Positions 12,895 to 42,700 are shown, counted from the stretch's first letter. The stretch: 64,000 nt of DNA from Macrostomum hystrix (GCA_950097015.1 CATNEN010000038.1:33170001-33234000); one strand, 5' to 3'. The notes: a model not told the origin generated them from the sequence alone. Numbers and translations are program-made.

Positions 12895-13215
12895 AGATAA
12901 GTGTGTCCCCTTAAAGTGCCCAAGTGACCCACAACTGCGCCAAAATCCCAGATTGGCACACTTTAGTGTGCCAACAAATGCGCAGGGTACTTATTGGCAC
13001 ACTTGTGCATCCGTGTCACTGACTGGGTCATTGCGCAGTTGTTGGCACAGTTAGATGCCCATGTGCCACTGGAACAGTTGTGTCGCAGTTATGGCACACT
13101 TACGAACTGTGCCAACAAGTGTGTCATAAGTGCGCCAAATTCTGCCAAAAAGCCAGTTAGATGCCTATATGTGCCAGCGTGTTTAACTGTGCTACTGGCA
13201 CCGCACCATTGTGTC
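12895..13215. repeat. Degenerate GTGCC/GGCAC-rich subterminal-type repeat cluster
   Basis: Many short GTGCC(A)/TGGCAC units in both orientations. Confidence 0.45.
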
Positions 13216-13915: not shown

Positions 13916-15008
13916 ATTCTGCCTAGTGAGTCTTCCTCCAAGATATTGATATTTTCATTTCACGAGTAAAACTTCCAATCAACTATGTACTGATGTACTG
14001 AGGTGCACTTTTGTGCCTATCATGATATGTACCCCTTTGTGCTTAATATGCAGTGTTTTGTACTTTGCCGCATTTGAGGAGTGTTTCTCTTCTTTCTTGC
14101 TTTTGTCACTTTTTACATGGTGTTTTAGGTGTTGTGAACAATTTGAACCCATTTTGCTCTTGTGCATTATTTTACGAAATTAGCTTTTTATTGTGTTCAA
14201 CATGTGCACCTTTAGCAAGACATGTACCTGCAGATTAGCCAGTAGCCTTACTTTTTAGGGAGTACGCTAAGAGGACTAAAATTAAGTATGTATTGTAAGT
14301 AAGTATTGTATATATTTTTGCAATGATATATACAAATTTGCAAATAAATACGAGCGTAAATAACGCCTATCAGGAAAAAATATGCAATTGAATTTATCAT
14401 ATCTGCAACTGAGTTCGGCAACCCGTAGCTTCGAGTAAATGATCGGCTCTTATTGGCGGGGGTCTTACGGACAGGTGCAGGATACTGTCCTGGTTTCGGT
14501 AAGGGCTGGGTGAGAGCGTAGCAGCAGTGACTGCCATGCCGATTAGAGTGTACACTCAAACCGATTGAGGCAAATGCGCTGGCTTGTAAGCCTGCTCCAC
14601 TGAGCTGTCAGCTCTATGGCAGAATGGGGCACTGCTGTTTACACGCGAAGAGAACTTTTAAAAGCCATTAAAGCGATTTTTCTTCAATATTTTCTTTTTT
14701 TCTGAAGAAGAAAATCGGAAAACTGCTGACATACACCAACCTTCAGTCAGTTTTTGCCAAATATCTCAATGGCCGAAGGGGCTGGAGACTTGGTCAGGAA
14801 AAATTGATCGGGATCATGCATGAGTGACGCTGAAATTATATAGATTCGTTGATATTCAGGGCGGCTAGTATACACTATACACACATGTGCGAGCGTACAT
14901 GCAAAATCTATAGATCTATACATGTACTTGTCCCCAGTCGAATGCAATTTTTCCACTGTCAATTGAAGTGGCAGTCAATAAATGTGCAGCCAAAAGTGTG
15001 GAATTGTC

Positions 15009-15151
15009 CGCAGTCAAATTGTGGCAGTCAAATGGCCGGCAGTCAAATTGTCCGCGGTCAAATGCTCGGCAGTCAAATTGTCCGCAGTCAAATGCTCCGC
15101 AGTCAAATGCTCCGCAGTCAAATGGTGGAAGTCAAATTGCAGCAGTCAAAT
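15009..15151. repeat. 15-bp minisatellite (GCAGTCAAATTGTCC-like)
   Basis: About 9 degenerate tandem units visible. Confidence 0.85.
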
Positions 15152-15496
15152 GTCGTAGTTCATTTTTCACCGTGTCCCTTTCCATACTGACCCCCCTCCA
15201 GTCTAGCATCTGCACCCACTTTGTTTTCTCTCTCTGCGCACGTTAATGTCTGTTAACCCCAATGTACACCCCCAGGGTTTTCATACACTGTTGTCTCTCC
15301 TCGCGGTCGGCCGCCCTTTCCCTCCTTGCATATCAAAAATATAATAAATGCCTGATGTTAAGAAAAGTGAAACAGCTAAGCTAAGTCGTAGACAGATTTA
15401 AACAATAACTCAACCTCTAGTACGTTTTTTCACTACTGAAATCGTCAAAATGGTTCCTGTAATTATTTACGCAGTAGGGAATATATAAAAAAATCA

Positions 15497-17860: not shown

Positions 17861-17969
17861 GTCTGAAGTTGTAAACGGCTCCTTTGTCTGGCAAAGGCCA
17901 CTGCCGAGGTAACGGCGCTGGCAATTGGTGCAGCTGCTGCATCAGTTGACCTCGCGGAGGCCCCTCCTC

Positions 17970-18110
17970 ATCCCGCCAACGCCGATCCCGCCGACGCCGA
18001 TCCCGCCGACGCCGATCCCGCCGACGCCGATCCCGCCGACGCCGATCCCGCCGATCCCGCCGACGCCGATCCCGCCGATCCCGCCGACGCCGATCCGGTC
18101 GATCCCGCCG
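17970..18110. repeat. 15-bp GC-rich minisatellite (CCGACGCCGATCCCG)
   Basis: Tandem units directly visible. Confidence 0.9.
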
Positions 18111-18419
18111 TTCCCGCCGCCATACCACCGGACCAGTTTGGCGGGGCCGGTCCCGGCCCGTCGGCGGTAGCGGAGGACGAGGAGGAAGAAGAAGAAGAAG
18201 AGCAGCAGCCGAGGGCCAAGAGGCAATGTGTGAAAAAGGTGTGTTTTTAACACTTGTTTTGATATTTTATTAAGTGATTATCAGCTTTTAAATTTTGTTA
18301 AAGCTAATTATCCTTTTGTAGAACCTGTTCAAACTTGTATTAACAATAAAAAAAATTATTATGTTTCAATTGGAGAAAGCATTCAAGCAGCATTCCAGAA
18401 TCTTGACTTTTTTAATTTA

Positions 18420-19624: not shown

Positions 19625-20138
19625 GAAATGTGGCCGAAAAAGTAGCCAAAAAGTGGCCAAACGCAAGTAGCCTAAAAGTGGCCAAGAGTGTCCCACGTTC
19701 GGCCACTTAAAAAGTGGCCGGAAATGTGGCCACTTAAAAAGTGGCCGGAAATGTGGCCGAACGTGGGACACTCTTGGCCACTTTTAGGCTACTTGCGTTT
19801 GGCCACTTTTCAGCTACTTTTTTACGGCCACATATTTTTTACAGTGTAATGTTGCCGAAAGTGTCCCGCGTAGGGCCACATAAAACGTTGCCGCCTCATG
19901 ACCATCATAATATGCAAAAATATGTGGCCGAAACGTGGCAAAAAAGTGGCCGAACGGGGGTAGACAAAAAGTGGCCGAACGTGTCCCACATAGGGCCACT
20001 ATAAAAGTAGCCGCCTGCACGGCCACTTAAAAAGTGGCCATCCTTATGTGGCCATACGCGGGATACTTTCGGCCACTTTTTGTCTACTTACGTTCGGCCA
20101 CTTTTTTGCCACGTTTTCGGCCACATATTTTTACAGTG
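19625..20138. mobile_element. Two CACTG-type right termini with palindromic GTGGCC subterminal repeats
   Basis: CGGCCACATATTTTT(T)ACAGTG ending at 19846 and 20138; long inverted repeat ~19645-19707 vs ~19754-19816. Confidence 0.65.
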
Positions 20139-20178: not shown

Positions 20179-21150
20179 ATGCATGCTGGAAGGCGACTAG
20201 AAGGCGCTTGGTCGAATGATAGGTTTCGAAAAAGTAGGTTCGAACCACGTACGAAGAGACCGGAAGAACCCACACTGCCGAAAGGAGAAGTGAAGACGCA
20301 AAAGCTCACCGAAAATTTGGTGAATAGACTGGTTGAATTTGTCAGTGACTACCCTACCGCTACGCTGGAGCAGATGAGTTCGCACCTGCTTCAGGGCAAC
20401 GACGATGACTTAAACATCAGTCTCAGTGCCATTAGTCGTGCTCTGGATGACCATTTGATCACACTAAGGCTTCTGCGCCAGGTCCCTGTTGATTGGAACA
20501 CGCGTCACGAAAGAAAGTCGCAGAATGCACGTGCAGTGGCTTCTGGATGAAGGCATCTTCTGTTCATGGACGAGTTCGGTGTGAACATCTATCTGGACGG
20601 CCAGAACTCAGGGTCGAGCCCCCAGAGGAATACCAGCAGTGACGGTGGTGAATAGTCAGCGAGGCCAAAATCTTACAATCTGCCTTGTCATCTCGCAACA
20701 GCTGGGGCTCGTGCACTACACGCTGGTCGAAGGTGGATTCTGAAACGAGCATTTCGTGGATTTTGTCTTGGTCCACCAGCTGGTGGAAGGAAACTTCGTG
20801 CTTCTGTCTGATGGCGCCCGTGCTCATCTGAATGCACCAAGGATGAGCGATGGCCACAATCACAGATTCCTTCCACCTTACTCGCCCTTCCTGAACCCGG
20901 CCGAAAGAGCGGGCGCTGCCATCAAGGCTGACCTGAAGAGACGCCTGCACGTGGGTGGAATTCAGGTGGATGTCGCCAACAGGCAACAGGCTGCAGCGCA
21001 TGACCTCACGTTGCATCAGCACAGGATGCACATCCTGAAACGCGAGGTTGCGCTATCCATGAGCAGCATCACGGCACCAAAGGTTCTGCAGTGGGTGAAC
21101 CACTATTGTACTTCCAGCGTTGTCTGAATCTCGATGACGTTTACTTTTAG
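20179..21150 (+). pseudogene. Decayed IS630/Tc1-like transposase, related to 10253-11323
   Basis: PTATLEQM..ISRAL, FMDEFG, LSDGARAH..LPPYSPFLNPAE; several frameshifts and stops. Confidence 0.8.
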
Positions 21151-22181: not shown

Positions 22182-22263
22182 ACACATAGAGTTTAGGGAT
22201 GTATTTATTTAAACCCCGAAGGCCCGAGGGGTTCAAGAAAAATACAACCCTAAACTCTGTGTC
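22182..22263. repeat. ~80-bp imperfect palindrome
   Basis: ACACATAGAGTTTAGGGATGTATTT..AACCCC / GGGGTT..AAATACAACCCTAAACTCTGTGT. Confidence 0.75.
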
Positions 22264-22508
22264 ACCTCACTTAAATTCATGCGCTAAAAATACAACCCGC
22301 AAATTTATGTAACAGTCAGTAAGAAATCCCCGGGTTGTATTTAATTACAACCCGCAAATTGGCCATACACTTCGATACTGTATTGGGGGTGTGGGGGCGA
22401 AGCCTCCACATTCTATACCATAGACATATTTTCCTCGCTCGCACTCACTCTCTCTATTGAAATTGCAATTCAGCCCGGCTGTGTAGTCTATGGTTTTTTA
22501 TATAGCGA

Positions 22509-22850
22509 TTCTTATGCAGCAAAAGAGCCCGGCCGAGTCCTCTATGCTTTCTTATGCAGCAAAAGAGCCCGGCCGAGTCCCCTATGCTTTCTTATGCAGC
22601 AAAAGAGCCCGGCCGAGTCCCCTATGCTTTCTTATGCAGCAAAAGAGCCCGGCCGAGTCCCCTATGCTTTCTTATGCAGCAAAAGAGCCCGGCCGAGTCC
22701 CCTATGCTTTCTTATGCAGCAAAAGAGCCCGGCCGAGTCCCCTATGCTTTCTTATGCAGCAAAAGAGCCCGACTCAATCCTTAATGCTTTCTTATGCAGC
22801 AAAAGAGCCCGACTCAACCCTTAATGCTTTCTTATGCAGCAAAAGAGCCC
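22509..22850. repeat. 40-bp tandem repeat, ~8.5 copies
   Basis: Unit TTCTTATGCAGCAAAAGAGCCCGGCCGAGTCCCCTATGCT. Confidence 0.95.
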
Positions 22851-23227
22851 GCGACCCGCTTTGCTATAATTCTAAATTGATTACTACTGATAGCAATTGT
22901 TGCAGTGTTAGGTGCGAGATCAGTTGGCTGATTGAATACATATACCAGTCATGATAATTTTGTTTCAAATGGCGCAGTTGTGACAGCAGCGGAATGCAGT
23001 TCGAACATTCTATGAAATGAGTTTCATGCAGGGTATTATCTTACGTTAAATGATGACTGCAGCCCCATGCCACTGCCCGCACCTGAGTTAGGGACCCATT
23101 TCGCACTGTGATGATCGATCGAAATTTTTCCAATATACTGCGGGATATATAGTGACTATAGCGGTATTAGCTAGTGTTAGACGCGTTGCTGCTGCACTCA
23201 CGACATTGTTGGGTGCGTAGAACCACG

Positions 23228-23647
23228 ATGAATGCTCATCCTGTGGCGCTGTTCGGCTCGCCGGCCATCGTGGCACTCCTGGCCAGATGCGACATTGCCT
23301 GCCTGGCCCCGTTCCTGGCGCACCGAGGACGACTGGAGCAGCTGACCTGCCTGCAGCGCCACTGCCCGAATGCTGAGCTGAATGCCACCCAGCTACACAC
23401 CTTGCTGAAGAGCCTCCTGGACTGGCTGCTACAACACCAGACAGCTGCGGGCTACGAGACCATCCTGGAGGTGACCTGCCTAACAGAGAACGAGGCTTTC
23501 GACTTGGCCGAGCTGCTAGGCCTGCTGGAGGACACCTGTTCGGAGCTGCAGCACATTCTACACGGGCTGGACTACTGGCGCGGCGTGCAGCAAAGGGCAA
23601 GACTGCGAGAGTTGCTCCGGAGTCGCGAATATCGAATGGAGCAGTAG
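23228..23647 (+). CDS. Hypothetical 139-aa Leu-rich helical protein
   Basis: GC-rich intronless ORF, TATATA at ~23146, AATAAA at 23721. Confidence 0.6.
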   Translation: MNAHPVALFGSPAIVALLARCDIACLAPFLAHRGRLEQLTCLQRHCPNAELNATQLHTLLKSLLDWLLQHQTAAGYETILEVTCLTENEAFDLAELLGLLEDTCSELQHILHGLDYWRGVQQRARLRELLRSREYRMEQ

Positions 23648-23809: not shown

Positions 23810-23950
23810 AGTACAGTTCGTGGTGCGCGCACAATCCCTAAGAAATATATATACAAGACGATTCGATTAGAGCTGCTGCTTATCTACCTAAGAATAGCAG
23901 GCAAGTCCTTATATATTTTTAAGTAATGTGCGCGCACTATGAACTGTACT
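23810..23950. repeat. Imperfect hairpin site A (~41-bp arms)
   Basis: AGTACAGTTCGTGGTGCGCGCACAATCCCTAAGAAATATATA ... TATATATTTTTAAGTAATGTGCGCGCACTATGAACTGTACT. Confidence 0.9.
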
Positions 23951-24259
23951 TCTCGCTAAAAGTACACACTATCAACTTAACCGGGATCCGAATTAACCTA
24001 ATTAAGCACCTATTAATAGAATCTCAATCTATCAGTTTTTACTATAAGAAGTAGTAACAGTGGTACTATCTGCTGCTCATCCTAAATAGCCTGCTCCTTC
24101 TCCTTGGGATGTACTTGGGACTCTATTAATAGGGAATCCCACCATGTTGCACCCAGTTGAAGAAGTTGAGAACCTGGGACTGCGTTGGCTTTCTGCAGCC
24201 TGCTCATTTTCATACATCCAAATTTGAACGCGCCTATAATTAACCCGCGGAAGCACAGA

Positions 24260-25240
24260 ATGTCGTTCAATTTTTCTACCGGCTGCGACAGCGACGATGA
24301 ACGAATTGCGGCCGCGCTGGACGAGTTTGAGAGAGCTGCCCAAGATAGCAACTCCGCCGGGCCGGTAGCGTCATCAACTCACCAGCCACCATCACAGCGA
24401 AAAAGAAAGAGCGCTCCCTCTCAACGTCGCATTGTCAATGCAGCGGCAGCAGCAGCAGCTGCAGAATCTACGCCAGGCCCAAAGCGGTGCTGCCGTCCAG
24501 TGCAGACAGCAGCGGTGGCTAACATCAGCAGTGACGCCGACGACTTCAGCCTGCTGCCCCTGGCTTCTTGTTGGCCCACCAGCAGATGCGCGCCACGTTG
24601 CTGGGGGTCTTTAGAGATGTGCAGCGCCAGCGCCGGATTCGCAGGGAGCAGCTCGCCGGCTGTTCCGCATGCTCCACCGAGGCTGCCGACAACAGGAACC
24701 TGTGCCCGCTCCGAGAGGCCGTCTGCACAGCCCTTCGCCACCAGTCGGGCGTTGTCTATCTGTATGGGCCGTCGGGAGTCGGCAAGACCACCGCCGTCGA
24801 GCGCCACTTGGACCAGGAGCGCATTAAGCGCATTAAGCGCATTAAACGCATTCTGCCCGGTCATTAAGCGCTTCGGCGGTAATGACTTCATGTTCGACGG
24901 CCTGGACACCGCGCGCCACTCAGTCATCTTTCTGGACGAGGTGCGGCCGCACATGTTCGAGGGCGGCGACCTGGAGACCACGCTGTTGCGCCTGCTGAAC
25001 GGCAACAGCTTCCTGGTCAACGCTAAGCACCAGGCGCATGTCTACCTGGACTGGGGCCAACGGCTGGTAATCATGGCCGGCCACGCCTCACCTGACGATT
25101 TCCCGGCTGACGTGCAGCGGCGCCTGCGCAACGAGGGCAACACATGCGTCGAGGTCGACCACGACATCGAGGCCTGCCAGGGGGGGGTGCCGCCAGCAGC
25201 CGATGTTCGGAGCCGCCGCCGCCGCCAACGCCCAAGTTGA
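24260..25240 (+). pseudogene. SF3 helicase (CRESS Rep / parvovirus NS1-like ATPase) without HUH domain; two compensating frameshifts
   Basis: Walker A VYLYGPSGVGKTT (24766-24789, in the 24568-24867 frame); FDG, Walker B VIFLDE, B' LLRLLNG..VNAK and a motif-C-position VIMAGH in the 24185-25240 frame. Confidence 0.75.
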
Positions 25241-26437
25241 ATAATTGATGAGGCCGCCTAATGTCTGTCTGTCTATTGCAAAATTATTTCACCCCTGCAC
25301 CCGTATTTTGTCTCCACCACCATCTTAAAGCGGGTTAGCAGATGTGGGCATGCAGGCAGAAATAGCTAGACGGCCAAAATATTACATAACAAAATATTAC
25401 ATAGCACAAAATATTAGTCCTTATTGGGCTAAATAAGGAATGGCTTTTGAGTTCGGCTGTTTAACAGCACCATATATAATCTATACGTGGCACACTGTTG
25501 CAGAAAACGGGGTAGCAGAAATGTGCGCGGACTATAGCAATTTATAAAGCATTTGATGGGATTAGTTTAATTGAATAAAATAGCGCGCAGTGTTTTCCTT
25601 ATTCTAGTGTTTTTGTTGCTCGTCAGTCTAGATGTGCTAAGAGATGGAGATGGCATTTATTACTTGTTCTCAGGATCGCTTCTCGCTCTTATCTGATTGC
25701 TTTTATTTTGAGTTCTATTATTTCATAGTCAATATTTTCATTTAGCATATGTCGCAGGCTGTCGACAATTTCAATTGTCCCCATTTTATTCCCGTTCTAC
25801 TTTTTCTGTACCGGCTCCATTAAACTTTTTAATCCCTCACCGCCAACAAATAGTTGTTGTTGTTGCTGTTGCTGCTCTCCAACAAGTTAGATAGATGGGC
25901 AGCTAGAATAATTAACAATGATTGCCTACCTTGTGGAGCGCAGATAAAAATCACTTTAAATGCAGTCGTCGTCGTTGGGGTCGCAGCTGGAGCGGAGCAA
26001 TCGGAACAGTGTAGGGGGCAGTCGAAACGAAACAGTAGATCACGAAGGAGTTGATTTGGTTGATTAATAGAGTTGGGATTGAAAATCAAAGTGTAGCTTG
26101 GGAACGATCGAGTCTGTCTTAATCGATTGGCATAGAGAAATCAATCAGTGCGCGAGCTAGCTCTCTTTGACTTGTGTGCTCAAGATGAGCAATACAGTCC
26201 TTCCTGATAAAATTTAGTTTCTGTTGTGCAGTGTCAAAGCAGCCCGGCCCTAACGGCTTTCTCTCTTCTTCTTCTGTCTATGGTCCCGTTAAGCTAAGCT
26301 TCGCCTCAACTGTTGCACCCCTTTTACCCCCCCCCAAGCTAAACGTAAGAGTGACTACACGGCTTATTCGCACGCGCGGCTTTAACCCAAATACACTCGT
26401 TATATTCGCTATAAGAAGCTTCCTTTGAGTCTTGACA

Positions 26438-27150
26438 ATGGCGTCGCGGCTTGGCGACCTTTTTCTCGGCGATGCCGACCGTGCACTGATGTGGCTCAAG
26501 GCCTTCAATGCTCTGGCCCGCGCCAAGAAGTGGACCGACTCGACCGAATCCCGACAAGTCGCAGACAATTTTTTGGCATCCTGCGGACTGCCTGCTTTGG
26601 AGAAGCTGACTCATCTCGTCGCTCCGAAGGAGATCGACAAGCTGACCTTCCAAGAGATCGAGACAGCCCTGGTGTCCTACTTACAACCTCAGAAGCGCCT
26701 CATTGTCGCCGAAAGAACCGACTTTTTCTCAATTCGTCAGAAAGCTGCTGAGCCGATAGCAGACTATTTAGCTCGCCTGAGGAAAGCAGCAACGCACTGC
26801 GCCTTTGACTCTCTGAAGGACTGCGCCAGTCCCGCAGAGGAGCTGGTGCGGCTTACTCTCATTTCTGGACTGTACAACCCTGAGCATCAACGGCGCATTC
26901 TAGGTGCAATGCAAACCAAGGATCAGACAATCTCGGAGATTGTTGACCTCATTCGAAGTTGTGAACAGATCAACACGTTTGTTCAAACCTGTAACTCGGT
27001 GCCCCCGGTAGGCCCGGCTGGCCCATTGTCGCCGCCAGCCCAACATAATGCGGCCACTGACGAATCGGTGCACTACTCCAAAGGTGGACGGCCAACTTCC
27101 AATGGTCAGCGCATCGAGGGCTGCAAGTACTGTGGCGGATCCCATCACGC
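26438..27150 (+). CDS. Gypsy gag (frameshifted into pol inside the first zinc knuckle)
   Basis: MASRLGDLF..., ERTDFFSIRQKAAEPIADY, CKYCGGSH. Confidence 0.85.
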
Positions 27151-30100
27151 AAGGCAAGTGCCCGGCATATGGCAAGACCTGTTCCAAGTGCTCCAAGCGC
27201 AACCACTTTGCTGCCGTATGCCGCTCCGCTCTGACTAGCAAATCCGTACATCACGCGGATGTTCCATCCGATGCATCGATGACGCCCGAGCCCTCGAAGA
27301 TCCTGCATCTTATGGACGTTGATCTGGTCAACGCAATCGAAGTTGCATCTGAGACACTTCTTGTAGACGGCGCCAAGGTACCAATGCAAGTGGATACCGG
27401 TGCATCCGTCTCCGTGCTTTCTAGCACAATCTGGGAGTCTCTGGGCAGGCCCCCACTGCAAAAGAGTCACCGACGCCTCGAGGCCTACGACGGCCACACC
27501 CTAAAGACTCTCGGCAAGCTGTGCTCTACCGTCGAGATGCGGGGTAGGTTACACCCCGCCGAATTCGTCGTGGTTTCGTCTTTGAAGCCGTTCGGCCTCC
27601 TTGGCCGTGATCTTTTAGATTCCGACTCTCTCTTTCACACCAACTCTCAAGCTCCGAGCCCCACAGTTGCAGCTACAACGCTGCCCACCATCAAGGGCAT
27701 CAAGGCACAGATGGAGCTGGTTGAAGGCGCTCGATCCCAGTTCTGCCGTGCTCGTCCGGTTCCAATCGCACTAGAGAAGCAAGTCAACGCAGAGTTGGAC
27801 CGGCTGCAGCAGCTTGGCATCATCGAGCCTGTGGAGGGTCCTGTGAGCAACGCTTCTCCGGTCGTCTGGATCAAGAAGAAGGACGGGACTTTGCGCATGT
27901 GCGCCGATTACAAGGTCCATGTGAACGACAAAATAAAGCCAGAGTCATACCCTATTCCAAGCATCGAGCACCTCTTTGGCAAGTTAAAGAATGCCAAGAA
28001 GTTTGCCAAGATTGATCTGAGGTCGGCTTACTGGCAGATCGAGCTGGACGAATCCGCCCAAGGCATCTCTATCATCAATACCTCGCGAGGCCTATACCGC
28101 GTCAAACGCCTTCAGATGGGCATGAAAAACGCTTCATTCATTTTTCAACGCACAATGGAGAGCATCCTCTCCGACTTGAAGGGACTACTGATCTATCAAG
28201 ACGACATCATGGTCTATGCTGAGAACGTTGAAGCACTCCAGAAGCGTCTGAAAGCAGTCAAAACGCGCCTGGCCGAAAAAAAGGTAACGGTCAATGAAGA
28301 CAAATGTACAGGCATTTGCGATTCGATTTCATTCCTTGGATTCGAAATTTCTGCCGCTGGAATTCGGCCCGATGATAAGCTCGTGGACAAAGTTCGCCAC
28401 ATCTCGACACCGAAGACCAAGAAGGAGATCGAGCAATTTCTCGGTCTGGTGAATTTCTTCGGCCGCTTGATTCCTGACTATTCCGCCAAGGTCGCCCCAT
28501 TGAACGAACTGCGCAAGGCATCCACGCCGTTTGTCTGGTCTGAAGCATGTGCTCGCGCTTTCGAGAATCTCAAGAAGGAGATCTCATCACGACCAATAGT
28601 ACAACCGTACAGCCTGGAGAAGGAGGTGACCCTCACAACAGATGCCTCTAAAGGAGCGTTGGCAGGCGTTGTTACCCAGGAAGGACGCCCTGTAATCTTT
28701 ATCTCTAGGACACTGTCCAAGGCCGAGACTAACTATTCCAACATTGAACGGGAAGCACTCGCCATCTTCTGGGCCGTCTGTCGCCTGAAACACTACCTCC
28801 AAGGCCGACGATTTACGGTACAGACGGATCATCAGCCTCTTCTACGGCTTTTCGGTGGCAGCATACCAATGAGTTCATCGGCAAGAATCAGTCGCTGGGC
28901 CCTTTACCTGATGCAATTTGACTTTAGCGTGGTCTACGTTCCCGGATCGCGCATTCCGCATGCCGATGCGCTTTCTCGTCTGCCGTTTGATAATGACAGT
29001 CAAGACCCGGCCGATGCATTCGAGGCAATCAACTCAGTTGCCTTTGAATCCCCTACTATCAATCCTCGACGGATCGCTAGCGAACTTGATTCTGATCCAC
29101 TGCTACAGCGCATCATACGTCGCGTACGCAATGGCGACTGGCATAACTGCACACAAGCAGAGGCCGCTTTCAAGAGAAACGCAGCAGCTCTAACAATCGA
29201 GAACGGCCTCCTCTACATGCACCGGCGCGCATTCATACCTCCGCGTCTCCGGAAAGAGGCCTTCGATGCGATTCACGACACTCATAGCGGTACTTCTGCC
29301 AGCTACCACCTCCTGGAGCTGTCCTGCTGGTGGCCCGGCATGCAGCGCGACGTGGAACGATTCGTGCGGCAGTGTGCTGCATGCAGCAGCCTGCGGCCCC
29401 GACTGCAGAAGTCCCGAGATGCTTGGCCACCTGCTGATGCTCCATTTCAGCGCATCCACATGGACTGGGCCTTCGTGCCCGAGGTGGGCAACATTCTCAT
29501 TGTAGTGGATTCCTATTCCGGATGGATTGAAGCCTTTCCATCCCGCGACAGGACGGCAGACAGGGTTATTTGCTCGTTACGTACTGTATTCACGAGATTT
29601 GGAGTCCCAGAGGTGGTGGTCTCCGACAACGGACCGGAATTCACGTCTGATGCCCTGCTGTCCTGGCTGCATGCCAACGGCGCCCGAAAGATGGAAACCC
29701 CTCCCTACTCGCCACAATCTAATGGTGCGGCCGAGCGAGCAGTCCAAACTGTCAAGAGGGCCCTGCAGGCCTGGACACAGAGACTGACCCACTCTGACTT
29801 CATTGCGTTTTTGCAGAAGGTTCTGCTTCACCACCGCAACTCGTCAGGTGCAAGGTCAAAGACACCGGCTGAGCTCGTGTTCGGTCGACGACTTCGCGTA
29901 CCTGTTGTCTCGGCTTTCCAACAAGGTGACCAGGTCGTATACAAGGCCACCGACCACACCCCGTCCCGAGGCGCAGAGTTCCTCATGACCCAAGGGCGCA
30001 ACACATCCTGGTTGCTGACGGACGACAAACTGCGTCTGGCAAGCAACAATCAGATTGCCCCGATGCTTTCACGCACTTCTGAGGACGACGAGGACGAAAG

Positions 30101-30221
30101 TCTGGAGCCGCCGGCAGACATGCCTCCCAATGAAACCCCGACACCACCGGCTCCGGTAGCAGATCAAGTTCCGCGCAGGGGTGACCGAAATCGGCGACAG
30201 CCAGACCGATACACACCCTGA
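27151..30221 (+). CDS. Gypsy pol: protease, RT, RNase H, integrase
   Basis: VDTGAS, YQDD, TDASK..TDHQPL, H-H-C-C zinc motif, HMDW, SDNGPEF, SNGAAER. Confidence 0.95.
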
Positions 30222-30935
30222 CACTGTGACGGTTGATATGTTGCCCTCCCGATAAGACTAACATAGCCACAAAAAATAGCCACATGCGCTCGTTGTTTTG
30301 TTTCATTTGACTGGAGGGAGACATGTTGTGCAGTGTCAAAGCAGCCCGGCCCTAACGGCTTTCTCTCTTCTTCTTCTGTCTATGGTCCCGTTAAGCTAAG
30401 CTTTCTATGTGCCTAACCTTTGTCTATGTCTTGAGTTTATCGCATTCCTTTATTAATAGTAGTCTAAAAATAATTTTACACACAGGCAGTTGTTATTTGC
30501 TTATTTGGGCGCTAATTATGTTATTTAACTTATAATAATTGAGCTATAATAATTTGAGTAAGTATACTAGTATATGGTATGAAAAGCTGACTGCATGCAT
30601 TAATATGTGAATAAAGGACATAAATCAAGAAAAAGCATTCGATCAAGAACTACATGTAGTAGACGGTACGTATGCATATGAAAAATCGGCAATTAACTAA
30701 TTTAAGATGAAAATCAACAAGCGGCATCTGCAATAACAAGCAATTAAAATACATGTAGTAATGATGTGTGCATTAAAATACAATTTGGATAGACGCAAAA
30801 AGCTATACATATAATATAGTAGTACGATTTAATAACGGCAATTAACAGCTGCATATAGTGCTACTCAGTTATTTATAGATTTTATATAAGAAACTAAAAT
30901 TTCAAATTCGCGCTAAATTCTACGAAATTCAATGT

Positions 30936-31051
30936 GTACAGTCTGTAGTGCGCGCACATTCCCTAAAAATATATAAGGCATGTCTGCTCTAATTTTAGAA
31001 CGACGATCCTTATATATTTTTTTAGTATTGTGCGCGCACTATGAACTGTAC
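30936..31051. repeat. Imperfect hairpin site B
   Basis: GTACAGTCTGTAGTGCGCGCACATTCCCTAAAAATATATAAGG ... CCTTATATATTTTTTTAGTATTGTGCGCGCACTATGAACTGTAC; homologous to site A with a different loop. Confidence 0.9.
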
Positions 31052-31253
31052 CTAAATCTAAAATTAAATTGCTTACTTGACTACTATAAGTAGAGCAGTT
31101 AGCAGCATTTGTTTAATAATTGTCATATAAATCTATGGCTAATTAAATAATTCTATCAACAGAAACAATAAAGTATAATATTATCAACGGGAGTAATCAA
31201 TCAAATACAATCAATATTCTCAACTATAGCATATAATCAATTATAATAACATT

Positions 31254-31291
31254 AGCGTATAAAGCGCGCACATGTGCGCGCTTTATACGCT
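31254..31291. repeat. Perfect 38-bp palindrome
   Basis: AGCGTATAAAGCGCGCACA|TGTGCGCGCTTTATACGCT. Confidence 0.95.
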
Positions 31292-31540
31292 GCACAGTAA
31301 CACAGTCAAACGAATTCAATCAGCCCTCCCTCCAAGGCCTGTGCATGTTTTCTCTGCGTGTTTTCTCTCTGTCCCGGCCCCCTTTATCTGCCCCACGGTG
31401 TTTTTGACTCACTATTTAAATATTTAAATATATATATACAATATATATATATAAAAAATACTATATATATATTGTATATATAAAATCTTAGATAAAGCAG
31501 GCAGACAGACAGGCGGGCAGGCAGGGCGAATCATTCAAAT

Positions 31541-34373
31541 TTAATGTTCCGCCACTGAGTGCAGCCGCCGTCGCTTTCCGGCCACCGGTCTATCGTGCAG
31601 GACTGCGTCGGCTCGTTGGGTGCTCGCCGCCATCTCACCACTTCCACCAGCCAGGCTGCTGATGAGTCCCTGGGTCGGCGGCCTAACTATCGGTGGCATC
31701 TGCTCGACATCTGATGGCACCACAAATCGGCGGACAATGTCGCGGCTGCGAATCACCGCGCCCATCTCCGTGGCCATCTGCGCGTTGTGACCATAGTTGA
31801 ACCGGATGACAGCTGCAGATGTGCCGTGCGCTCTGGCGAAGACATCTAGCTGCTCCGGCTCCATCATGAGCACTACGGCACAGAGGGTGCGACGCCAGTG
31901 CGTGGCCACATAGTGCCGACCCAGTACTCGCTGCCCGCCTGCGCTGATCATGCGGCTCATTGCCGACTGGCTGTACACGCCGCCGAACACATCTATGAAG
32001 ACCGTCGGCGACTCCGGTTGCTCGATGCCGCGAGCAGCAAGCGACGGCACGATGTATTCGTCGTGCAGGCGCAGCAAGGCCTCACAGAATAGATCCGGCA
32101 GCACCATCCTGGCTGGGTCGCCGGAGTGTCTGACCTTGTGCGGCACTTCACGCAGCGGCAGGACGAGGTGTGAGTGCCCAGCCAGATCGGCAGCGGACGG
32201 CGCGCTCTCCCCATCTGCACTTTGCGTGTGTTGGCGGAACAGCTGTTTTTGGTCGGCCGACGCGTTCCGACGAACCGACCGATCAACCAAGTGTCGCCGG
32301 CGGATGTAGATCCAAGGCAGGAGTCGCAGGGGCTGCTCAATGCTGCAGAAAAACAGCATTTCCTGCACAATCCTCCGCAGACAAACCATCCGGCGACTGA
32401 AGGCACCATCATCTACCGCATCCTCCCTGATGGTGATGCTATCTGCAACGGCTGCCTGCATGCACCACTCGCCGTCTACGGGCAGCGAAGTCCAGCTGTG
32501 CCTTTGTAGCATGGCAAAAAAACGATCACGGCGGGCGAACACGGCATCGACCTCGTCCACGTTGACGTAGGTGTCCATGAAGGCCACCTGCCGCTCGTTG
32601 TGGCCAAGCTTGTAGACTGCCTGCATATAGTATAAATGTGGTTGCGTTTACTTATAGTAGATAGCAGCACGAAACCAAATAGAACTAACTGTCATTAATG
32701 CAGCTGCTGTGCAGCTAGCTCACCTGCTGGATGGCGCGGACGTTGCCGAACTCGCCGCGAGCCTGCTGCACCACGCTGCTAAGGCGGGCGATGAGAGCCT
32801 GCTCAGCCGCCAGCGGGTTGTTGGCCTTCTGCGCCAACTGCAGTCTCCAGCAGACGCCACTGCCGACAGAGTCGACGTCCTCAATCGCAGGGCGCTCGGT
32901 GTCAGGCGAGGGTGAGTCGATGCTGCAGAACAGCTCGGCTTCGCGCAAGCCAACGGCGGCCATGATGGCATTGGCGCCTCGCAGGCCCCTCACGCGCAGC
33001 CAGCCCTCCATGCAGCGGCAGATGCTGACAAGCTCCTGGCACTTGCGCGCAGCAGTCGACTGGGCCAGCTGCATGGCATCACTGACTGTTTCAGCGCTGA
33101 AGCAGTCCTGCACCCTGTCCGGCTGAAGCAGCAGGTCTGCAAGCGATATGCCCGCTCGCTGCCAGGTGCGTAGAAGCGTCGAGCTCACGGACCTGCTGAT
33201 GTCGCGCCAACGCTGCTGGTGGCACAAGTTGGCCGCAATCCTGGCCCGCGATGGGTCCCTCCACCATAGCTCCCGCAGGCGTTCCACCGTTGCGGAGATG
33301 CTGGGCCGGTCACCCAACGGCTGCAGCAGCTCTGGTGGCACGGGCTTCGCAGGTGGCGACGTGCGAAAGTGTCGACAGCGCGGACCGCGACGCTGTTGCT
33401 GCTGCTTCTGATCGGCTGTCGACGCTTCCTGCTGCAGTTCTGCTCCGAAGATGGACAATCGAAGCCGGTCGAATTCGGCATTAGCCAGCCTTCTCTTTGC
33501 AGCAGTCCACTTTGCTGCAGCTGCTCGACGCTGCCTCGGCGGGGTAGCTGCCAGCTTCACTAGCGGCCTCTGTGCAGCTGACAGCACAGCCGATGACGTG
33601 CTGGGACGACAAAGTGCTGCCTTGGTGGCCTGCACCGCCAACTGCAGACAGGCAGCCGAAGAGGAAGACTCTGCTGCCACCGTCTGGACCGTCGGCAGCG
33701 TCCGCATTCTGATGCTGGTTCCGGGCAGCAGCTCCTGCAAGCCGACATCGTCATCTCCATCATCGTCATCGTCAGCGACTACGGGGGCCTCCTGTGAGGA
33801 CATCAGCAGCAGCGGCGCAGTCGGGTCAAATAGGCGTCGCCGGACGGCTGGACGGCTGGCTGACGACAGCCGAGCACTGGCCGCTGACTGTCGACCGTCA
33901 ACGGATGGCGCGGCGATGCTGTAGAGCTCGGCCAACAGAGACCCAGCCTCGTATTCAGCTGGTTCTGCCTCTGAAGGCTGCTGCGGAGGCGGTGGTGGCA
34001 TCTGCTGCGGAGGCTGTGGCTGCTGGTGTTCCACAGCAACGGTAGCGACAATAGCTGGCACTGCTGGACACCTGTGCTGCCTTGCTGTCCTACGCAGCAC
34101 CTTGCCGCAGGCTGGGCACGCGTGTACATGCTCAGTGTTGGCTGAGCTGCGCGTGTGGGTGCTGCACGTCAGGCAGAGCCAGACCATCTGGGCACGCTGC
34201 TTGGCTGACGCCGCTGCCCAAGATGCCTCGGACGGCCGCACCTTGACTGGGGCATCCTCGAGTCGGAATTGGCGCACAGCCTCCTCCGCGTGCCTCCTCA
34301 GGAAGTGGCGTTTCGGGTGCGTCTGCGGTCTGCCGTCGCCACAGAAGATGCAACACGACTCGTTGTCTGTCAT
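31541..34373 (-). CDS. Two-exon zinc-finger tyrosine recombinase, ~909 aa (exons 34373-32724 and 32620-31541)
   Basis: Phase-0 GTGAG...ATGCAG intron 32723-32621 joins the two ORFs in frame (IQQ|AVYK). Exon 2 has QPLR, PHK, THWRR, AHGTS and FNY in R-K-HxxR-H-Y order. Exon 1 has CIFC..H..H, CLTC and CPAC..HRC clusters. Confidence 0.75.
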
Positions 34374-34456
34374 AGCTATTGTTATTACAAATTGATGCAG
34401 TGCCATATAGGTGTATGAACTGAATTCAGTATGCATGCTCAATCAACACATGCTAT

Positions 34457-34558
34457 GTACAGTCCGTTGTGCGTACATCTAAATAAATATATATATGCCC
34501 CTATATCCCATTGTGGAATACACTATTTTAAGTGTTGTGCGCGCACATTGTTCCGTAC
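34457..34558. repeat. Degenerate hairpin site C, upstream of the recombinase
   Basis: GTACAGTCCGTTGTGCGTACATCTAAATAAATATATAT ... TATTTTAAGTGTTGTGCGCGCACATTGTTCCGTAC. Confidence 0.7.
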
Positions 34559-35354
34559 TGTTGTCATCGCTGCTGCATTTATATTCGATTGAGTGCTGCG
34601 TTGAGCACAGAAATCACTTATTTTTATGTTGTCCCTAACAACAACAACAACAACAACATCCCGGCTGTAAAAATTATAAGCCTCTGAATCATTTATAAAT
34701 TTTAAAAACATAATTTTTCATTTGCAATGTAGTACAATCAGCTCAGACATTCGATTTTCCAGTGAACAGCACACCCACCCCCTCCAACTCGATCTTCCTC
34801 CCTCAAAAGCAGTGCCGAGCCAGCCAGCCAGACCTGTAGATGGAAAGAGAGACGACTTCGATCGTCTTCAGTCTATGGCCACAGGGGTGACATTATCGAT
34901 TGGTTAAAGCAGACACACTGCTTCTCTTTTTCAAGGCAGAGCAGTGGCCTTCCACACCCTTTTACCATAGACTATGAATTTAGAGACAGGGCCGTCCCCT
35001 TTCGCTTTCGAAGGTTTAAAGAAAGGGTGGCAAGCAAAGTAGCAGTCTTTTAGTTTTAGCCCGACCCAACTGCTCGATCGAACTGCAGCTTACAGTCAAA
35101 TATAATTCAGAGATCCATCCACAATTCGAATCAACAGTCAGCCTTCTATTTGCTTGGACAAAGTTAAAACTGGCTACAGATATTATACCGACAGAGAGCC
35201 ACAGGATCTATTATTATGTCAACAGCGAGCATTAGGATCTAATATATTTCTACGCAGCTCAGAACTGCATTACAATTACTGAGATTACTAATATATTATA
35301 ATTATAGAGAACTGCATGCGCTATTAACTATTATATTTACAGACCGATTGTTAT

Positions 35355-35513
35355 ATGTATACAAACACTAATTGCAGGGCCTATTATATATACAAATACT
35401 AATAGCAGGGCCTATTATATATACAAAGACTAATTAAAGGGCCTATTATATATACAAATACTAATTGCAGGGCCTATTATATATACAAAGACTAATTAAA
35501 GGGCCTATTATAT
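35355..35513. repeat. 31-33-bp tandem repeat, ~5 copies
   Basis: Unit TATATACAAATACTAATTGCAGGGCCTATTA. Confidence 0.9.
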
Positions 35514-36522
35514 TAACCCAGCTTGTAATTCATATTTATGAGCAGAGACTTACACGGCCTATTTTAAATACAGAGCCTTTTTCTTATTTGCAGCGCATCT
35601 TCACTCTCCAGCAGCAGCATAAGCAGCACCAGCAGTAGCGTCAGAAGCATCAGCAGAATCAGCAGAAGCAGCAGCCAGCAGCATCAGCAGCATCAGCAGA
35701 ATCTGCAGAAGCAGAAGCAGCAGCCAGCAGCATCAATAGCCGCAGCCAGCCCCGTCCGCCTGTGCCCACTTCGAGGTGAGATAAATATTCAATTGTACAG
35801 CTGGATAGCATTAGTTAGCCTCTGCGAAATATAATCGAGTAGACTTTAGCATAGAAATTATATTCGAATTGCCTTTCCATGTTTTTTGCTTGTCGTCGCT
35901 GCCGCCGCCAGTCAAAATTAAATCAAATTATTGAATGTCATAAGACATAGAGTCTGTGTCAATCAGTGTCAATCAGTCAGTCAATCGATCTCGAACGAAA
36001 CAATACATTCAGTATACTGTACACTGCTGCTGCTCTAATGCAATATCAATAACGAGAGAAAAAGAGTGCTTGCGAGCAAAGCCATAGAGGAAGCGTGGTC
36101 TTCCCAGTTCTAAAAATAGCTGCAGAGCTAGCGCGTGAATTTAAATACGCGTGAATTTAAATACACTGTTTACGTTGTTATAAACGAGAGAAGATGAAAG
36201 TGATTTTAGGAAGGCCTTTATGTTCATTTTTTGTCTTAATCTGACTTCCGAATAAATAAATCTAAATAGTAAGCTAAATGGAGCAGAACTGAACTGCTGC
36301 GCACTGAAATATAAGCGCTATACGAAAATTGCTATGTTTGCGTTTCAATGAGGCCCAAATGGCTCTCCGAAAAGACCGAATAATGAGTCGAAAAAAGCTG
36401 GGCAAAAATCTGAAAATTAGGAAAGTATAGGGACATATTTTATAAAGACAGACATAAGACAGATAAATAGCAGCAAGCCTAACTGAAACAAATTTAACAC
36501 TATAGTTTACATCCCTTAACTA

Positions 36523-37530
36523 ATGGCAGAACGAAGACTTATTTTAAACCTGTTGGTTGATTATTCTAAAAAATACGTTGGAGACTATGATCCAAATAAG
36601 CTTATGGTGGACGATTTAGACCTAGTGCTGGACGCTGGTGAAGATTTGCGAAACCCTTACACATTGCAAGAGGTGCGGTCATCGCGTGAAGAACCTGGTC
36701 CATCAATGCTGCCCAAGGACTTGACTCTCGATATGTTTTGATCAGTTAATGAGTCGACAAAGCCTGCCAATACCGCCAATCGGAACAAGTGGTCCGCTGG
36801 CGTCTTTGATTGGTGGCGCTCTGGCCGTTACAACGATTCTATTCGTGCTGTGCAAGAACTTAGTGATGAGCTAAACGAATTCCTTCCTGTTTTCATTCAT
36901 GAAGTGACCTGTGCCGATGGGACTCAATATCCGCCAAACACACTTGTGTCAATTGTTGCTGGTCTGCAACAAACTATCTGCAAGGTGAGTAAAGTTGATT
37001 TCTTTCGCAGTGAGTGATTCAGCATTGTGCGTGAAAGTCTGGACGCCCCATGAAGATTGGGATAAGAAATGGCTTAGGACTAGCCAGGAAATCTGCTGAA
37101 GTTGTTGGCTATGAAGATCGGGAGAAACTTTGGGAGAAAGTGTTGGGCGACAAAGATCTTACGAGTCTGATCAGAGCTTTGTTTTATCTCAACGGCTTGC
37201 ATTTTGCTCTACGTGGCGTTCAGGAACATAGTGCCCTGTGTATTTCGCAATTCAATGTGCAAGAGCAAGAGGGACAGAAATTTATTGTTTACATAAAGAT
37301 GACCACGAAGACGAATGCTGGTAGATTGCGCGACACTCGCTTCAAACGAAAGGAAGTTCTTCACTTCGCCAATACAGCCAATCCGGAACGTTGTCATGTT
37401 CGGCTTTTCAAGCTTTTTAAGAAATCCAGGCCTAGCCAGAGTAATAGATTTTACCTTCTGCCGCTGAAGCAACCATCAGAGAAGCAATGGTACTCGAATC
37501 GTCCAATTGGCGAAAACACCCTGACAAAAT
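36523..37530 (+). pseudogene. Crypton (DUF3504-type) tyrosine recombinase, N-terminal part
   Basis: PANT..NKWS, FIHEV..DGTQYPPNTL, FALRG, KTNAG, NPERCHV, WYSNRPIGENTL; contains stops and frameshifts. Confidence 0.85.
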
Positions 37531-38481
37531 TAAAGAGTACAATACTTTTTCTAAAAACTAAAATTGTCATTGTCATTTGTCAACATAGCTAACATCAGAA
37601 ATAACATTTTCATTTTCTATTCCTTTAAATTCTGAAAGACATTGACCTGTTTTGATCAATCCAGGCTTTCTCTGGATTGATCCTATATGCCATCTAACTT
37701 GAACTTACTAATGTCGCACGTGTTAGGTTTAATGTCGATTGGCCTTCACATTGGCCTTTAGTTTAACTCTTTTAAATATCAATGAAAGGAATTTGCTCTG
37801 AAATAAAATATATGTTTTCTTTAATTACAATGCAATATAACACAAATGTCATTTTTAGTGCGTTCTACTGATTGACTTTTGTTTCTTCGATTATACTTCC
37901 CTGAATATCGATCGATCGGAATATCTGTCGGCGAAAGTAAAAAAGGTGCATGTATGTGACTTTCGTCCGCGCGGATTCTATTGCGGTAAAAACCGCATTG
38001 TGATGTGTGAACACAACAATGGGGTTTTCAATGAGGTTTTTATGAGGGAATTACCGCATTGAACCAACTATATGTATTTTAATTCAGTTAATATATCACA
38101 TATCAAATATTAAATTCATTATTTATATACAACTTCTGATGCGGTATTTAAAATGTAAGACTTTTAATGCAGTTTTCGATGTGGTTTTCAATGCAGTATT
38201 TATGTACAACTTTTGATGCTTTTTTGGATGGGGTATTTATATATGACTTTATGCTCTATTTATATTTAAATCCCTGCGAAGGTCTTTTCCAGGATGTATT
38301 TTTACCTGATAAAACAAACACCGAACTAGAATTCGTATTTTTCGAGTTTTATATTTTATAGTTCATTCTGGATGTCAAAAAACGAGACTATGCATATAAC
38401 TAAAAAAGAAAATTTGCAGGTCTTTTTAGTGCGTAGATCAGTTTTTAGTTATTAACAGTTGGGTTCATAGCATGCATGTAA

Positions 38482-39789: not shown

Positions 39790-42700
39790 CTATAGATATA
39801 TCCACATAGAAATAAAGGGGAGAGTAAATTACTTGTACATTCATGTGATTCAGCTTGTTCTTGACTTCAAAAGTATTTCTCCAAGGAGACTGACCAACTT
39901 GACCGAAAATGGCTTCCTGATGTTGTCTTTCCTTTGCTACGAGATATCCATGAATATGGAATTTACTATGTTAACAAGGAAGTCATCCGGACTAACATTC
40001 GACGAAGAGGCAGCTTTGCATATTCATTACGACTCATCTGTGCAGAATCTGCAGAATGTAAAGCTGTTGCTATGCTATCCATGAATGAGTTGCCACTTGT
40101 CCAGACTGTTGATTTAACTTAGCGAAGACTAAACAAACATAGTGGCCACAGAGACATAACACAGATGACACAGAACACAGAATAACACAGAATCCTCGCC
40201 ATCAATGGCAGCGTGGATCAATGGAGTGCCGTAAGTTTATCAAAGAAAAGGCAATAAGTACGGATGGTGGACCAACTTAAATTTACGAGGAAGGTTTGAA
40301 ACAGTTTCACGTAGGAAATTGCTCATTGGCTGCTACACGCCAATCATGCAGTCGCATTCAGAATGCTCCTAGCAAAGCACCACCTAGTAAAGAACTACAT
40401 TGCAAAGATCTGGATGAGCAAGAGGTGCTACTAATGCAAATGAACGATTGGAAAGTCTCAATGCAGCCTAGTGAAGGTGTTCAAGGATTTATTCAGCGCA
40501 TTAGTATTACACCATTTGGCATTGTGATTTATTGTGCCAAACAGCAGCAGCTATTGCGCCAATTATTGAGAAATAATCCCGACACTCCCGTCCATATTGA
40601 CGCCACTGGTGGTCTCGTGTGCAAATCGGATGTTGTACCTGCGAGGGTTCTTCTTTGTAGCGTAGTTGTTGGTATCCGTACCTCATCCACTGTGAAATCA
40701 CTACCAGCGCCACAAACAGAGGCCGATTTATAGTCCACAAAGACTGAAGATATCACAGCCTGGTTAGACTCATTTCTGCTCAATTTTTCTCGCTTCGATG
40801 ACCGCGGTGGTTGGGAAATGAGACATGTTGGACCGCGCATCTACGTCACTGATTTCAGCTGGGTTTTTTGCACGGTATTCTTCGAGCTGCAGCAGAAGTG
40901 AATCTGGCTACCTATCTAAGGAAGCAGTATAAACGTTTAACTGCTTACGACATTAAGTCTCCATCGTACCCTATTGTATTTATTTGTAGTTCGCATCTGA
41001 TGCACCGCGTCGCTATTAAAAATAAGGAAAAGAAGACAACATTTTTACTTTTATTTGCTCAGCTTATCACCGCAGACAGCGTGAGTTTCGTGAATTCCCT
41101 CTGGAAGGCTATGCTACTCGTACGTGTGTTTTGCAGTCCCTATCTTACTTCTGATTGTCAGGCAGCTTACGATTTACTTTATCAGCACGCTTGTCGCTTA
41201 CCTAAAAGCTGCCACAAGGTTGTCGAGAATGTTATGAAAGCCGATTTGGAACCAGAACAAGAAAATGACTTGTAGGGTACAATAGGGTACGATGGAGACT
41301 TAAGTAGCATATGATCCTCTGTTTTGAAACGAAGAAGCGACTCTCCGATCAAATTCACCATTTGCTAGTATTTTCGACAAGCCAGAGCTTGATATATCTT
41401 TGGTTTGATGGTCTTCTGTATCTGTGGTTCGCTCTTTCGTTCTAATGTTCTGAGTTAAGTCAATAAGCGGTGAGTTTGACTCAATGTTTCCAGCGGTGTT
41501 AAACCTTCTCTAATGTGTTATATTTCTATCCTGATGTCTGATGTTATTTAAGCAATCACAATGATAGTAATCAATTGATATACTAAGTAAGAAGCAGTCA
41601 AGATCGAGATACTTATCGTATCCGTTCGATGGGTTGCGGTCCAAGGTCAAGGTCCAATATCTAGTAATCCAAACTATAGTCTGATCGGCTCTAGTGGAGT
41701 TCAAGGTTGAGAGTGGGGTGGTGCCGATGTTCCCGACTGCTTCGTACTTTCGTATGTTAAATAGGCAGTGTATGTTAGACTGTCATTGGTAGCCTGCGTT
41801 TAGCGAATTAGCGGATAGTAAGCGATAGTAAGCAATGCATTGGTTGGATTGCATTAGAACGCATATGGTAGAAGTGGCTACATCTCAATCTGATCAATCA
41901 ATTCACAGAACAAGGACATGAAGAGAATCCGCTTTTTTTGCCTGTCCCACTGGAAAGAATCTACAAACTTTATCTGCCACTTTTGCCACTTTAGAGTGTG
42001 TGTGTTTCACGGAACAACGATTACAAAGCATCTAACAAACAGTACAGTTGAAGCATGGTTTAGTTGGGTGAAAAATCGAGTACGCCGATAGAGTAGCTCA
42101 CGATTGAAAATTAGCAACATGTTACGTGACCATCTCGATTGTGTGCTGGACAGACTTCGTAGAGTAAAAAAGGAGCAACAACCAGTGCTGCCTCCACGAA
42201 AAGCAAGGCATCGAAGACGACAGCAGAATGAGGATGCGCCCCATTTTCCGAAGGGTGATCCTTGGGCTTCAAGACCGAAAGAATGCAAACCCTCTTACTT
42301 AAGTGGAACACTTGTACCGAAGTGGCCCTTAAAGCGCAGCGGAATCCGCGAATGTGTATCTCAGTCGGAAAGCGTTGCAAACGCAATGAAAGTGCATCTC
42401 GATCTATCCGTTAAGGAACCATTCGTCTGCGTCAAAACTGACAACTGCGGCGAAGAAATTAAACTAGTAAACGACAGTAAGAACCCAGCTATCAGAAGGA
42501 CACGTTTTGTAGTCGGCAATCTCAGCGATTCACCACAAAGGCTAATCGTCAGCAAAAGCATTTCCTGTATCGACGCAAGCGGTATCAAAGTCTGTGTTAC
42601 AACTGGTGCCAAAAGCCAAGTCAAATCGAGTGACACAAAGATTCCAGTCGAACCTAGTGGCGCCATGAGCCCCATTGAATCGAGTAGCTCCAAGAATGAA

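Follow-up and report, generated by a model that had tools for sequence, protein, structure and literature searches.

The window analysed here, a stretch of 64,000 nucleotides (nt) of one strand from the flatworm Macrostomum hystrix (GCA_950097015.1 CATNEN010000038.1:33170001-33234000), is transposon-rich eukaryotic DNA containing a small gene array and three related sites, A, B, and C, which are studied here as parts of a candidate mobile element. The array runs in the order small open reading frame (ORF), site A, superfamily 3 (SF3) helicase gene, site B, tyrosine recombinase gene, and site C, with a Ty3/gypsy long terminal repeat (LTR) retrotransposon between A and B; once the latter is removed, 2.8 kb separate A from B and 3.4 kb separate B from C. 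The GC content at third codon positions (GC3) is 0.71-0.87 in the three array genes vs 0.27-0.67 in six other measured ORFs.

The three sites, none of which is assigned to a strand, have the same architecture. Site A (23810..23950) is an imperfect inverted repeat with arms GTACAG-N6-GTGCGCGCAC-N13-TATATA, site B (30935..31052) is the best-folding hairpin and has the converging 3' ends of the helicase and recombinase genes on either side, and site C (34456..34559), the most diverged copy, lies immediately before the recombinase gene and makes a weak hairpin; measured from GTAC to GTAC, they span 139, 116, and 102 bp, respectively. The original prediction had placed three hairpins with shared arms at these positions, and the six arms do follow one pattern with fixed spacing, i.e., from the outside inwards, GTACRG, six variable bases, GTGCGYRCAY, and an AT-rich stretch. 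The TATATA that had been ascribed to the arms closes this stretch in five of the six; it is missing from the right arm of C, whose left arm also lacks a full GCGCGCAC box. The pattern GTACRG-N6-GTGCGYRCAY occurs six times in the window and never in 300 block shuffles, which shows only that chance copies are not expected, since the pattern was built from sites A-C themselves. A position-weight matrix scan of the window revealed no seventh arm, and the arm and hairpin patterns had no matches in the viral contigs or in the metagenome contigs searched. Mean pairwise identity across arms is 0.94 in the first box, 0.49 in the 6-nt spacer, and 0.90 in the second box. The same contrast appears within the hairpins A, B, and C, where mismatches concentrate in the spacer (4/6, 3/6, and 2/6 positions paired) relative to the boxes (16/16, 16/16, and 12/16).

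When folded as single-stranded DNA, the top strands of A and B reach -32.5 and -33.0 kcal/mol (z -7.1 and -10.2) and that of C -8.1 kcal/mol (z -0.7), with bottom-strand z values of -6.6, -10.9, and -0.5 for A, B, and C. The prediction of hairpins thus stands for A and B, where base pairing extends over 40-55 bp, and C is a poor one. The loops, described originally as unrelated, are in A and B partly self-paired and loosely alignable, and although the similarity is not significant (best p 0.04 among six comparisons, p 0.17 with other scoring), that description was slightly overstated. The first 22 nt are the same in the right arms of A and B, and a single spacer column has G in every left arm and A in every right arm; these two observations suggest, on sequence grounds, that A, B, and C are in direct orientation. 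A flip of the inner part of B relative to A was considered and rejected as not significant. The flanks of the three sites have nothing in common beyond short low-complexity matches, and the contigs of the runs show no empty site for any of the three.

The GCGCGCAC box ties the sites to a feature that was absent from the original prediction. Counting both strands, it has 12 hits in the window, where about two are expected by chance; all lie within five of the arms and in a palindrome, D, and none in the rest of the window, outside the gene array. Palindrome D (31254..31291, no strand) is perfect over 38 bp and loopless, carries two GCGCGCAC boxes head to head, has its core 213 nt after site B, and is the longest perfect palindrome of the window. 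A sister palindrome of about 36 bp, not in the window's copy, is found at 24038..24040 (no strand) in contigs of runs X1 and X2: its 18-bp core is the same as that of D and begins about 109 nt after site A. It is documented by the joints 24038>31264 (X1 and X2) and 31281>24040 (X1), with a depth of 347 of about 495 in X2; in X1, X3, and X4, depth varies too much to give copy numbers. The order hairpin-then-palindrome is therefore found both at A (in the X1 and X2 contigs) and at B, in the same direction irrespective of that of the next gene; there is no such palindrome 3' of site C. By analogy, this hairpin-plus-palindrome repeat recalls a multipartite genome with its common region.

The gene between B and C, on the minus strand, had been called a recombinase, and its tyrosine-recombinase features and predicted fold agree with that call. 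We predict an exon 1 (32724..34436) encoding a Cys/His zinc-finger-like start, a low-complexity linker, and a helical domain, a 103-nt intron (32621..32723; CAG/GTGAGC ... TATGCAG/, phase 0 on both sides), and an exon 2 (31541..32620) for the catalytic domain, where the R, K, HxxR, H, and Y all have candidates (motifs at residues 105-113, 161-167, 242-248, and 266-279). Exon 2 lies in an ORF spanning 31541-32626, and the upstream ORF (32715-34442) runs into a consensus splice donor; the acceptor is in phase, the predicted intron has a GC content of 0.40 vs 0.61-0.64 in the exons, and a 2-base difference common to all four runs sits within it. A single M. lignano protein, P0013 (1084 aa), aligns with exon 2 (E 2e-25) as well as with the zinc-finger start (E 1e-4), and because it holds both halves it supports the existence of one spliced protein of about 910-930 aa. 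The recombinase is thus likely to be an intron-split C2H2/tyrosine-recombinase, as judged from sequence. A phmmer search over 1.84 billion representatives gave eight hits, all fragments with 30-36% identity and the named ones from M. lignano, and the R, K, second R, and Y are retained in the fragments covering them. In the Atlas, the exon 2 ORF is closest to a Phage_integrase cluster (0.96; the family is carried by 17% of cluster members), and the cluster of the telomere resolvases ResT/TelK ranks 19th (0.92, 119/256 features in common). The model of exon 2 built from eight sequences has a pLDDT of 57.8 (31 for the single-sequence fold); its best Foldseek match in the PDB is XerA (E 0.02), then come other integrases, XerH, and Cre, and the matches among viral models are phage integrases and Vlf-1 (the latter with E 0.26). 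The candidate catalytic R-K-HxxR-H/W-Y set and the integrase fold, predicted from matches that are weak but agree with one another, place exon 2 in the tyrosine recombinase superfamily. A word-index search with exon 2 retained none of 7745 candidates, and none of seven window proteins is present as such in the protein collection searched. Searches made for loci related to the helicase or the recombinase gave none, so that there is no second locus to compare.

The SF3-type, CRESS-Rep-like helicase gene (24260..25240, plus strand) has Walker A (GPSGVGKT), Walker B, and C motifs spread across two frames. It is broken near 24560, where a stretch of another copy is absent, and near 24820-24870, by a frameshift within a short tandem duplication. 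At the former break, in the N-terminal half of the gene, the contigs of X2 have at least 315 further bases, which could make room for a nicking domain; no HUH domain was seen in the window's copy or in the protein P0001, and no capsid gene was found in the protein-family and homologue searches. The sole homologue of the C-terminal part (one of 28 candidates) is a protein of M. lignano with 69% identity. P0001 matches PF00910 weakly, below the cut-off (E 0.006), and its Atlas neighbours include CRESS-virus, RNA_helicase (SF3), and rotifer clusters (0.94-0.96), the CRESS clusters being at 0.94-0.95 with about 200 shared features. The helicase call of the original prediction is therefore sustained, and the gene appears to encode the SF3 helicase domain by which a CRESS-DNA virus or pCRESS is recognised. 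As originally stated, A and B bracket this gene; they also enclose the 4.18-kb Ty3/gypsy element, absent in contigs of two runs, which interrupts about 1.5 kb without a long ORF that follow the helicase gene. After the helicase stop, at 25377-25400 and outside any stem-loop, there are two tandem AAAATATTAC repeats, similar to the geminivirus nonanucleotide.

The small ORF (23231..23647, plus strand; 138 aa, leucine-rich, GC3 0.76) is followed by AATAAA at 23721, 89 nt before site A, and is likely the first gene of the array. It had no homologue in the searches made, and a by-eye impression of a death-fold (CARD) domain received no backing from them. A 717-nt contig of X1 and X4, containing the 5' part of this ORF and upstream DNA, matches 22900-23474, where the match ends, with depths of 137 and 41 vs about 4 and 2 nearby; there is no excess in X2, and expression, amplification bias, or another repeat are candidate causes. 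Tandem arrays of 40 and 31 nt lie just outside the gene array, one on each side (22429-22908 and 35323-35544), and 1 kb to the right of C a Q/S/A-rich stretch flanked by plausible splice acceptor and donor sites (35594-35776, plus strand) could be the exon of a further gene served by C. The Ty3/gypsy retrotransposon (26222..30403, plus strand) has Pfam gag, protease, reverse transcriptase, RNase H, and integrase domains in a near-complete gag-pol, between identical 80-nt direct repeats. The insertion is polymorphic: its empty site is found in contigs of X1 and X2 (joint 26217>30402, five shared letters). It is a later passenger in the array. Its LTRs match over 80 nt only, so the 3' LTR may be short, and at position 27151 each of the four runs (X1-X4) departs from the window by one base, which points to an error in the window or to a private mutation. 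The window's copy of the element is decaying. Among the 40 between-copy differences considered, besides which there are 344 further ones, 14 fall in the three ORFs and 11 of these are synonymous, which indicates that the element family has been under coding constraint.

We see an even chance that the element uses A, B, and C, in direct orientation, as recombination sites at which its own recombinase would excise one-gene circles. The zinc-finger recombinase would bind the GCGCGCAC box, as a duplex or as an extruded hairpin, and recombination site by site would free circles that each have one gene and one full hairpin, of about 2.9 kb for the helicase (gypsy excluded) and 3.5 kb for the recombinase, whereas recombination of A with C would give a two-gene circle. 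The helicase may replicate these circles or provide single strands, palindrome D would be a candidate origin or binding site, and the overlap of A and C with gene starts might add autoregulation. The resemblance to integron attC sites, the first option of the original prediction, is the best anatomical fit in terms of the succession of box, 6-nt spacer, and box, of the length of 102-139 bp, and of the direct orientation, even though several defining features of integrons fail and no recombined product was seen. A fuller version, to which we give only a small chance, is that of a self-shuffling mobile element as an animal counterpart of integrons. Its genes would be one-gene cassettes set between attC-like hairpins, a zinc-finger tyrosine recombinase of a new family would recombine these hairpins in folded, single-stranded form, and a CRESS-type helicase/Rep would supply the strands and replicate the circles.

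A number of observations weigh against the idea that A-C are recombination sites. No recombination, circle, or change of gene order was observed. None of the 13 joints in the run contigs connects any two of the three sites, but contigs lose rare forms, and the list of joints thus says nothing on excision. Site C folds no better than its shuffles on either strand. The orientation is based on one diagnostic column and small differences in identity, and for the inner parts of A and B the inverted alignment (score 32) is about as good as the direct one (28). The conserved-variable-conserved pattern of the arms suits equally two transcription-factor boxes, and all six ends read G-TA...TA-C, which is compatible with the target duplications (TA or GTAC) of miniature inverted-repeat transposable elements (MITEs). 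The outer ends of the element were not found. Unlike in integrons, the recombinase gene is itself flanked by two of the sites, and gene directions differ. As for the enzyme, all fold matches are weak (none at E <= 0.001), and sequence searches of Pfam, PHROGs, and the PDB assigned it to no recombinase family. The mechanism is built on one decaying copy and three sites, and we put it forward as a hypothesis that is strong and testable.

The box-spacer-box conservation suits protein-binding sites, and A-C could be duplicated promoter or regulatory modules (GCGCGCAC box and TATA), maybe bound by the zinc-finger protein of the element, that take no part in recombination. Among the options originally offered, this one fits C and, loosely, A: the TATATA at 34488 is 52-115 nt before candidate recombinase ATGs, that at 23910 is 232-350 nt before candidate helicase ATGs, and C, the site closest to a gene start, barely folds. 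Yet the best hairpin, B, has a gene's 3' end converging on it from either side and no gene for a promoter to serve (there is no ORF of more than 103 aa in 25240-26220), and the 40-55 bp of pairing in A and B exceed the needs of a promoter; we consider this explanation unlikely. We regard as similarly improbable that the sites are three old non-autonomous transposon copies with terminal inverted repeats (TIRs), ending in CAG...CTG with a TA duplication (Tc1/mariner-like) or having a GTAC duplication, that landed in AT-rich spacers of a recombinase-helicase element. All six ends fit TA/CAG...CTG/TA (one with CCG), the sizes of 102-139 bp are suitable, the window is rich in other small inverted-repeat elements, and the chance of three random insertions this close (p 0.03) is not negligible. 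Nevertheless, there is no copy elsewhere in the 64 kb, boxes are conserved where spacers and loops have diverged, unlike in neutral decay, each of the three sites has G and C immediately outside its TA, and palindrome D carries the same box in another geometry. The X2 depth over the sites (bins of 496, 419, and 551) is also not raised relative to the 3794 at the LTR, a weak hint, as the depth of contigs does not measure copy number and copies that have diverged may escape.

The resemblance of the helicase to CRESS-virus and RNA_helicase (SF3) clusters (0.94-0.96) brings in replication, and with it the possibility that A-C are stem-loop origins (a common region) of a multipartite, Rep-driven single-stranded DNA element, whose one-gene circles were integrated in tandem by a recombinase that is merely an integrase. 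Each unit would indeed have one gene, one hairpin, and one palindrome, in the manner of a multipartite common region, and the extra bases in the N-terminal half of another copy's helicase leave room for a nicking domain. But this option, also raised originally, is quite improbable: no nonanucleotide is present in any loop, the motifs TAGTATTAC and TAATATTAC are in none of the sites, the two AAATATTAC at 25377 and 25392 fall outside them, and neither an HUH domain, in the window's copy and P0001, nor a capsid gene was found. The ResT/TelK cluster among the Atlas neighbours and the loopless perfection of D would accord with a telomere-resolvase-like enzyme whose targets are D and its sister palindrome, with linear hairpin-ended units of which A-C are hairpin-end relics or accessory sites, and the alignment of the interior of B to that of A scores slightly higher inverted than direct, as would be the case for flip/flop ends. 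We find this very hard to support, as there is no protelomerase among the best 50 PDB fold matches and the inversion signal is not significant. Least credible of all is a role of the hairpins as RNA, in pre-microRNA-like or terminator structures: the conserved part has 22 nt and A and B weakly match an Rfam model of a microRNA precursor (35 and 32 bits), but the gathering threshold is 70, twice these scores, the 22 conserved nucleotides lie at the base of the stem, and C does not fold.

The rest of the window holds several other mobile or repeated elements. There is a decayed CryptonA-like gene at 36500-37592 (DUF3504, E 2e-25), unrelated to the recombinase of the array, as well as a Helitron with OTU, Helitron_like_N, and PIF1 domains in broken ORFs (51840-58148) and an ORF with STPR repeats (50262-51380). 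An intact-looking Tc1/IS630-like DDE transposase (DDE_3, E 1.5e-21) is encoded at 10253-11323, and a decayed ORF similar to such a transposase, read by eye, lies approximately at 20180-21130. Two nested and related inverted-repeat units rich in TGGCCA boxes (19628-20126) are probably a foldback or MITE family. Hairpins or palindromes without the GCGCGCAC box occur at 22184-22262, 12953-13139, 59188-59215, and 60680-60765, perfect 26-nt inverted repeats with 299 nt between them at 40953-41303, and tandem arrays at 15002-15169 (15 nt) and 17955-18122 (15/9 nt).

Animals have few tyrosine recombinases, and for most of these the target sites are unknown. The recombinase described here belongs to a family with no match in Pfam and lies beside repeated, structured candidate sites, so its substrate is directly testable. 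If the sites recombine as hairpins, structure-specific recombination would extend to animals, and the element would link integrative DNA transposons with multipartite single-stranded DNA replicons; a compact pair of recombinase and site from a model flatworm genus could also become a tool for genome engineering. The literature searched has no description of such an element, although Repbase, which lay outside the search, may hold an entry, and the sections of PMC10288648 and PMC6431247 considered have no element in which a recombinase and a helicase are paired.

The closest parallel in anatomy is the integron. According to the parts of PMC5027507 used here, a folded attC has an R box, an unconserved and unpaired spacer of 5-6 bases, an L box, and a variable end, over 57-141 bp, and imperfect hairpins of 102-139 bp between single genes and adjoining a tyrosine recombinase are what we find at A-C. 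The duplex sites typical of tyrosine recombinases have two inverted repeats of 11-13 bp around 6-8 bp (PMC3212892, in extract). In A and B the two boxes are clearly paired, with a mismatched 6-nt spacer between them and a variable inner part; in C this anatomy is weak. However, the RYYYAAC/GTTRRRY core of attC is absent, the outer box being GTACRG / CYGTAC. The L box of attC carries two or three extrahelical bases; the second box of A and B is bulge-free, and the bulges are further inward. No attI or Pc was seen. The promoterless cassettes of an integron point in one direction, whereas here the helicase is on the plus and the recombinase on the minus strand, and the genes have TATA-like and poly(A) signals and an intron. 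The integron integrase lies outside the array, whereas this recombinase is between B and C, in a eukaryotic host and together with an SF3 helicase; it has no IntI-family match, and in the fold search the integron integrase 2a3v ranks 12th (E 0.45). Cryptons are also eukaryotic DNA elements with a tyrosine recombinase, and the extract of PMC3212892 mentions a proposed circular intermediate. The same extract gives them no TIRs, only terminal direct repeats of 4-6 bp, and the recombinase as sole recognisable gene, whereas the element studied here has a helicase and long inverted repeats. Animal CryptonA matches DUF3504; the array recombinase does not, whereas the unrelated ORF at 37050 does so at 2e-25.

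Other likenesses are with viruses and their integrated relatives. The CRESS-type SF3 helicase, the hairpins as candidate origins, and the integrated state recall the CRESS-DNA viruses and pCRESS treated in the portion of PMC10288648 considered, which also presents Replitrons, with neither a helicase nor a recombinase, unlike the array; no HUH domain was seen in the copies that were read, and there is no nonanucleotide in a stem-loop and no capsid match. The planarian PEVE/PIVE come from flatworms as well; these virus-like elements, segmented or repetitive in build, have inverted repeats at their ends and ORFs of the SF3 type (NS1/E1-like) (PMC3198968, in part). No tyrosine recombinase is mentioned in that part, and the likeness is one of description. 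The architecture of a C2H2 domain, a helical domain, and a recombinase is shared with the telomere-associated recombinases of nimaviruses, also from invertebrates (PMC10871703, in part). Nimaviruses and bracoviruses are large double-stranded DNA viruses, unlike this element, and no sequence link to them emerged, Vlf-1 being a weak fold match only. Bracoviruses have tandem segments that are freed as circles at repeated junctions, and these junctions are direct repeats that are not known to have the hairpin anatomy of A-C. In its working the element would be comparable to an integron array or to proviral segments in tandem, but it is neither an integron nor a CryptonA and is not shown to be a CRESS virus; its combination of recombinase and helicase is that of an undescribed element, and such it would remain if the sites were only promoters or MITEs.

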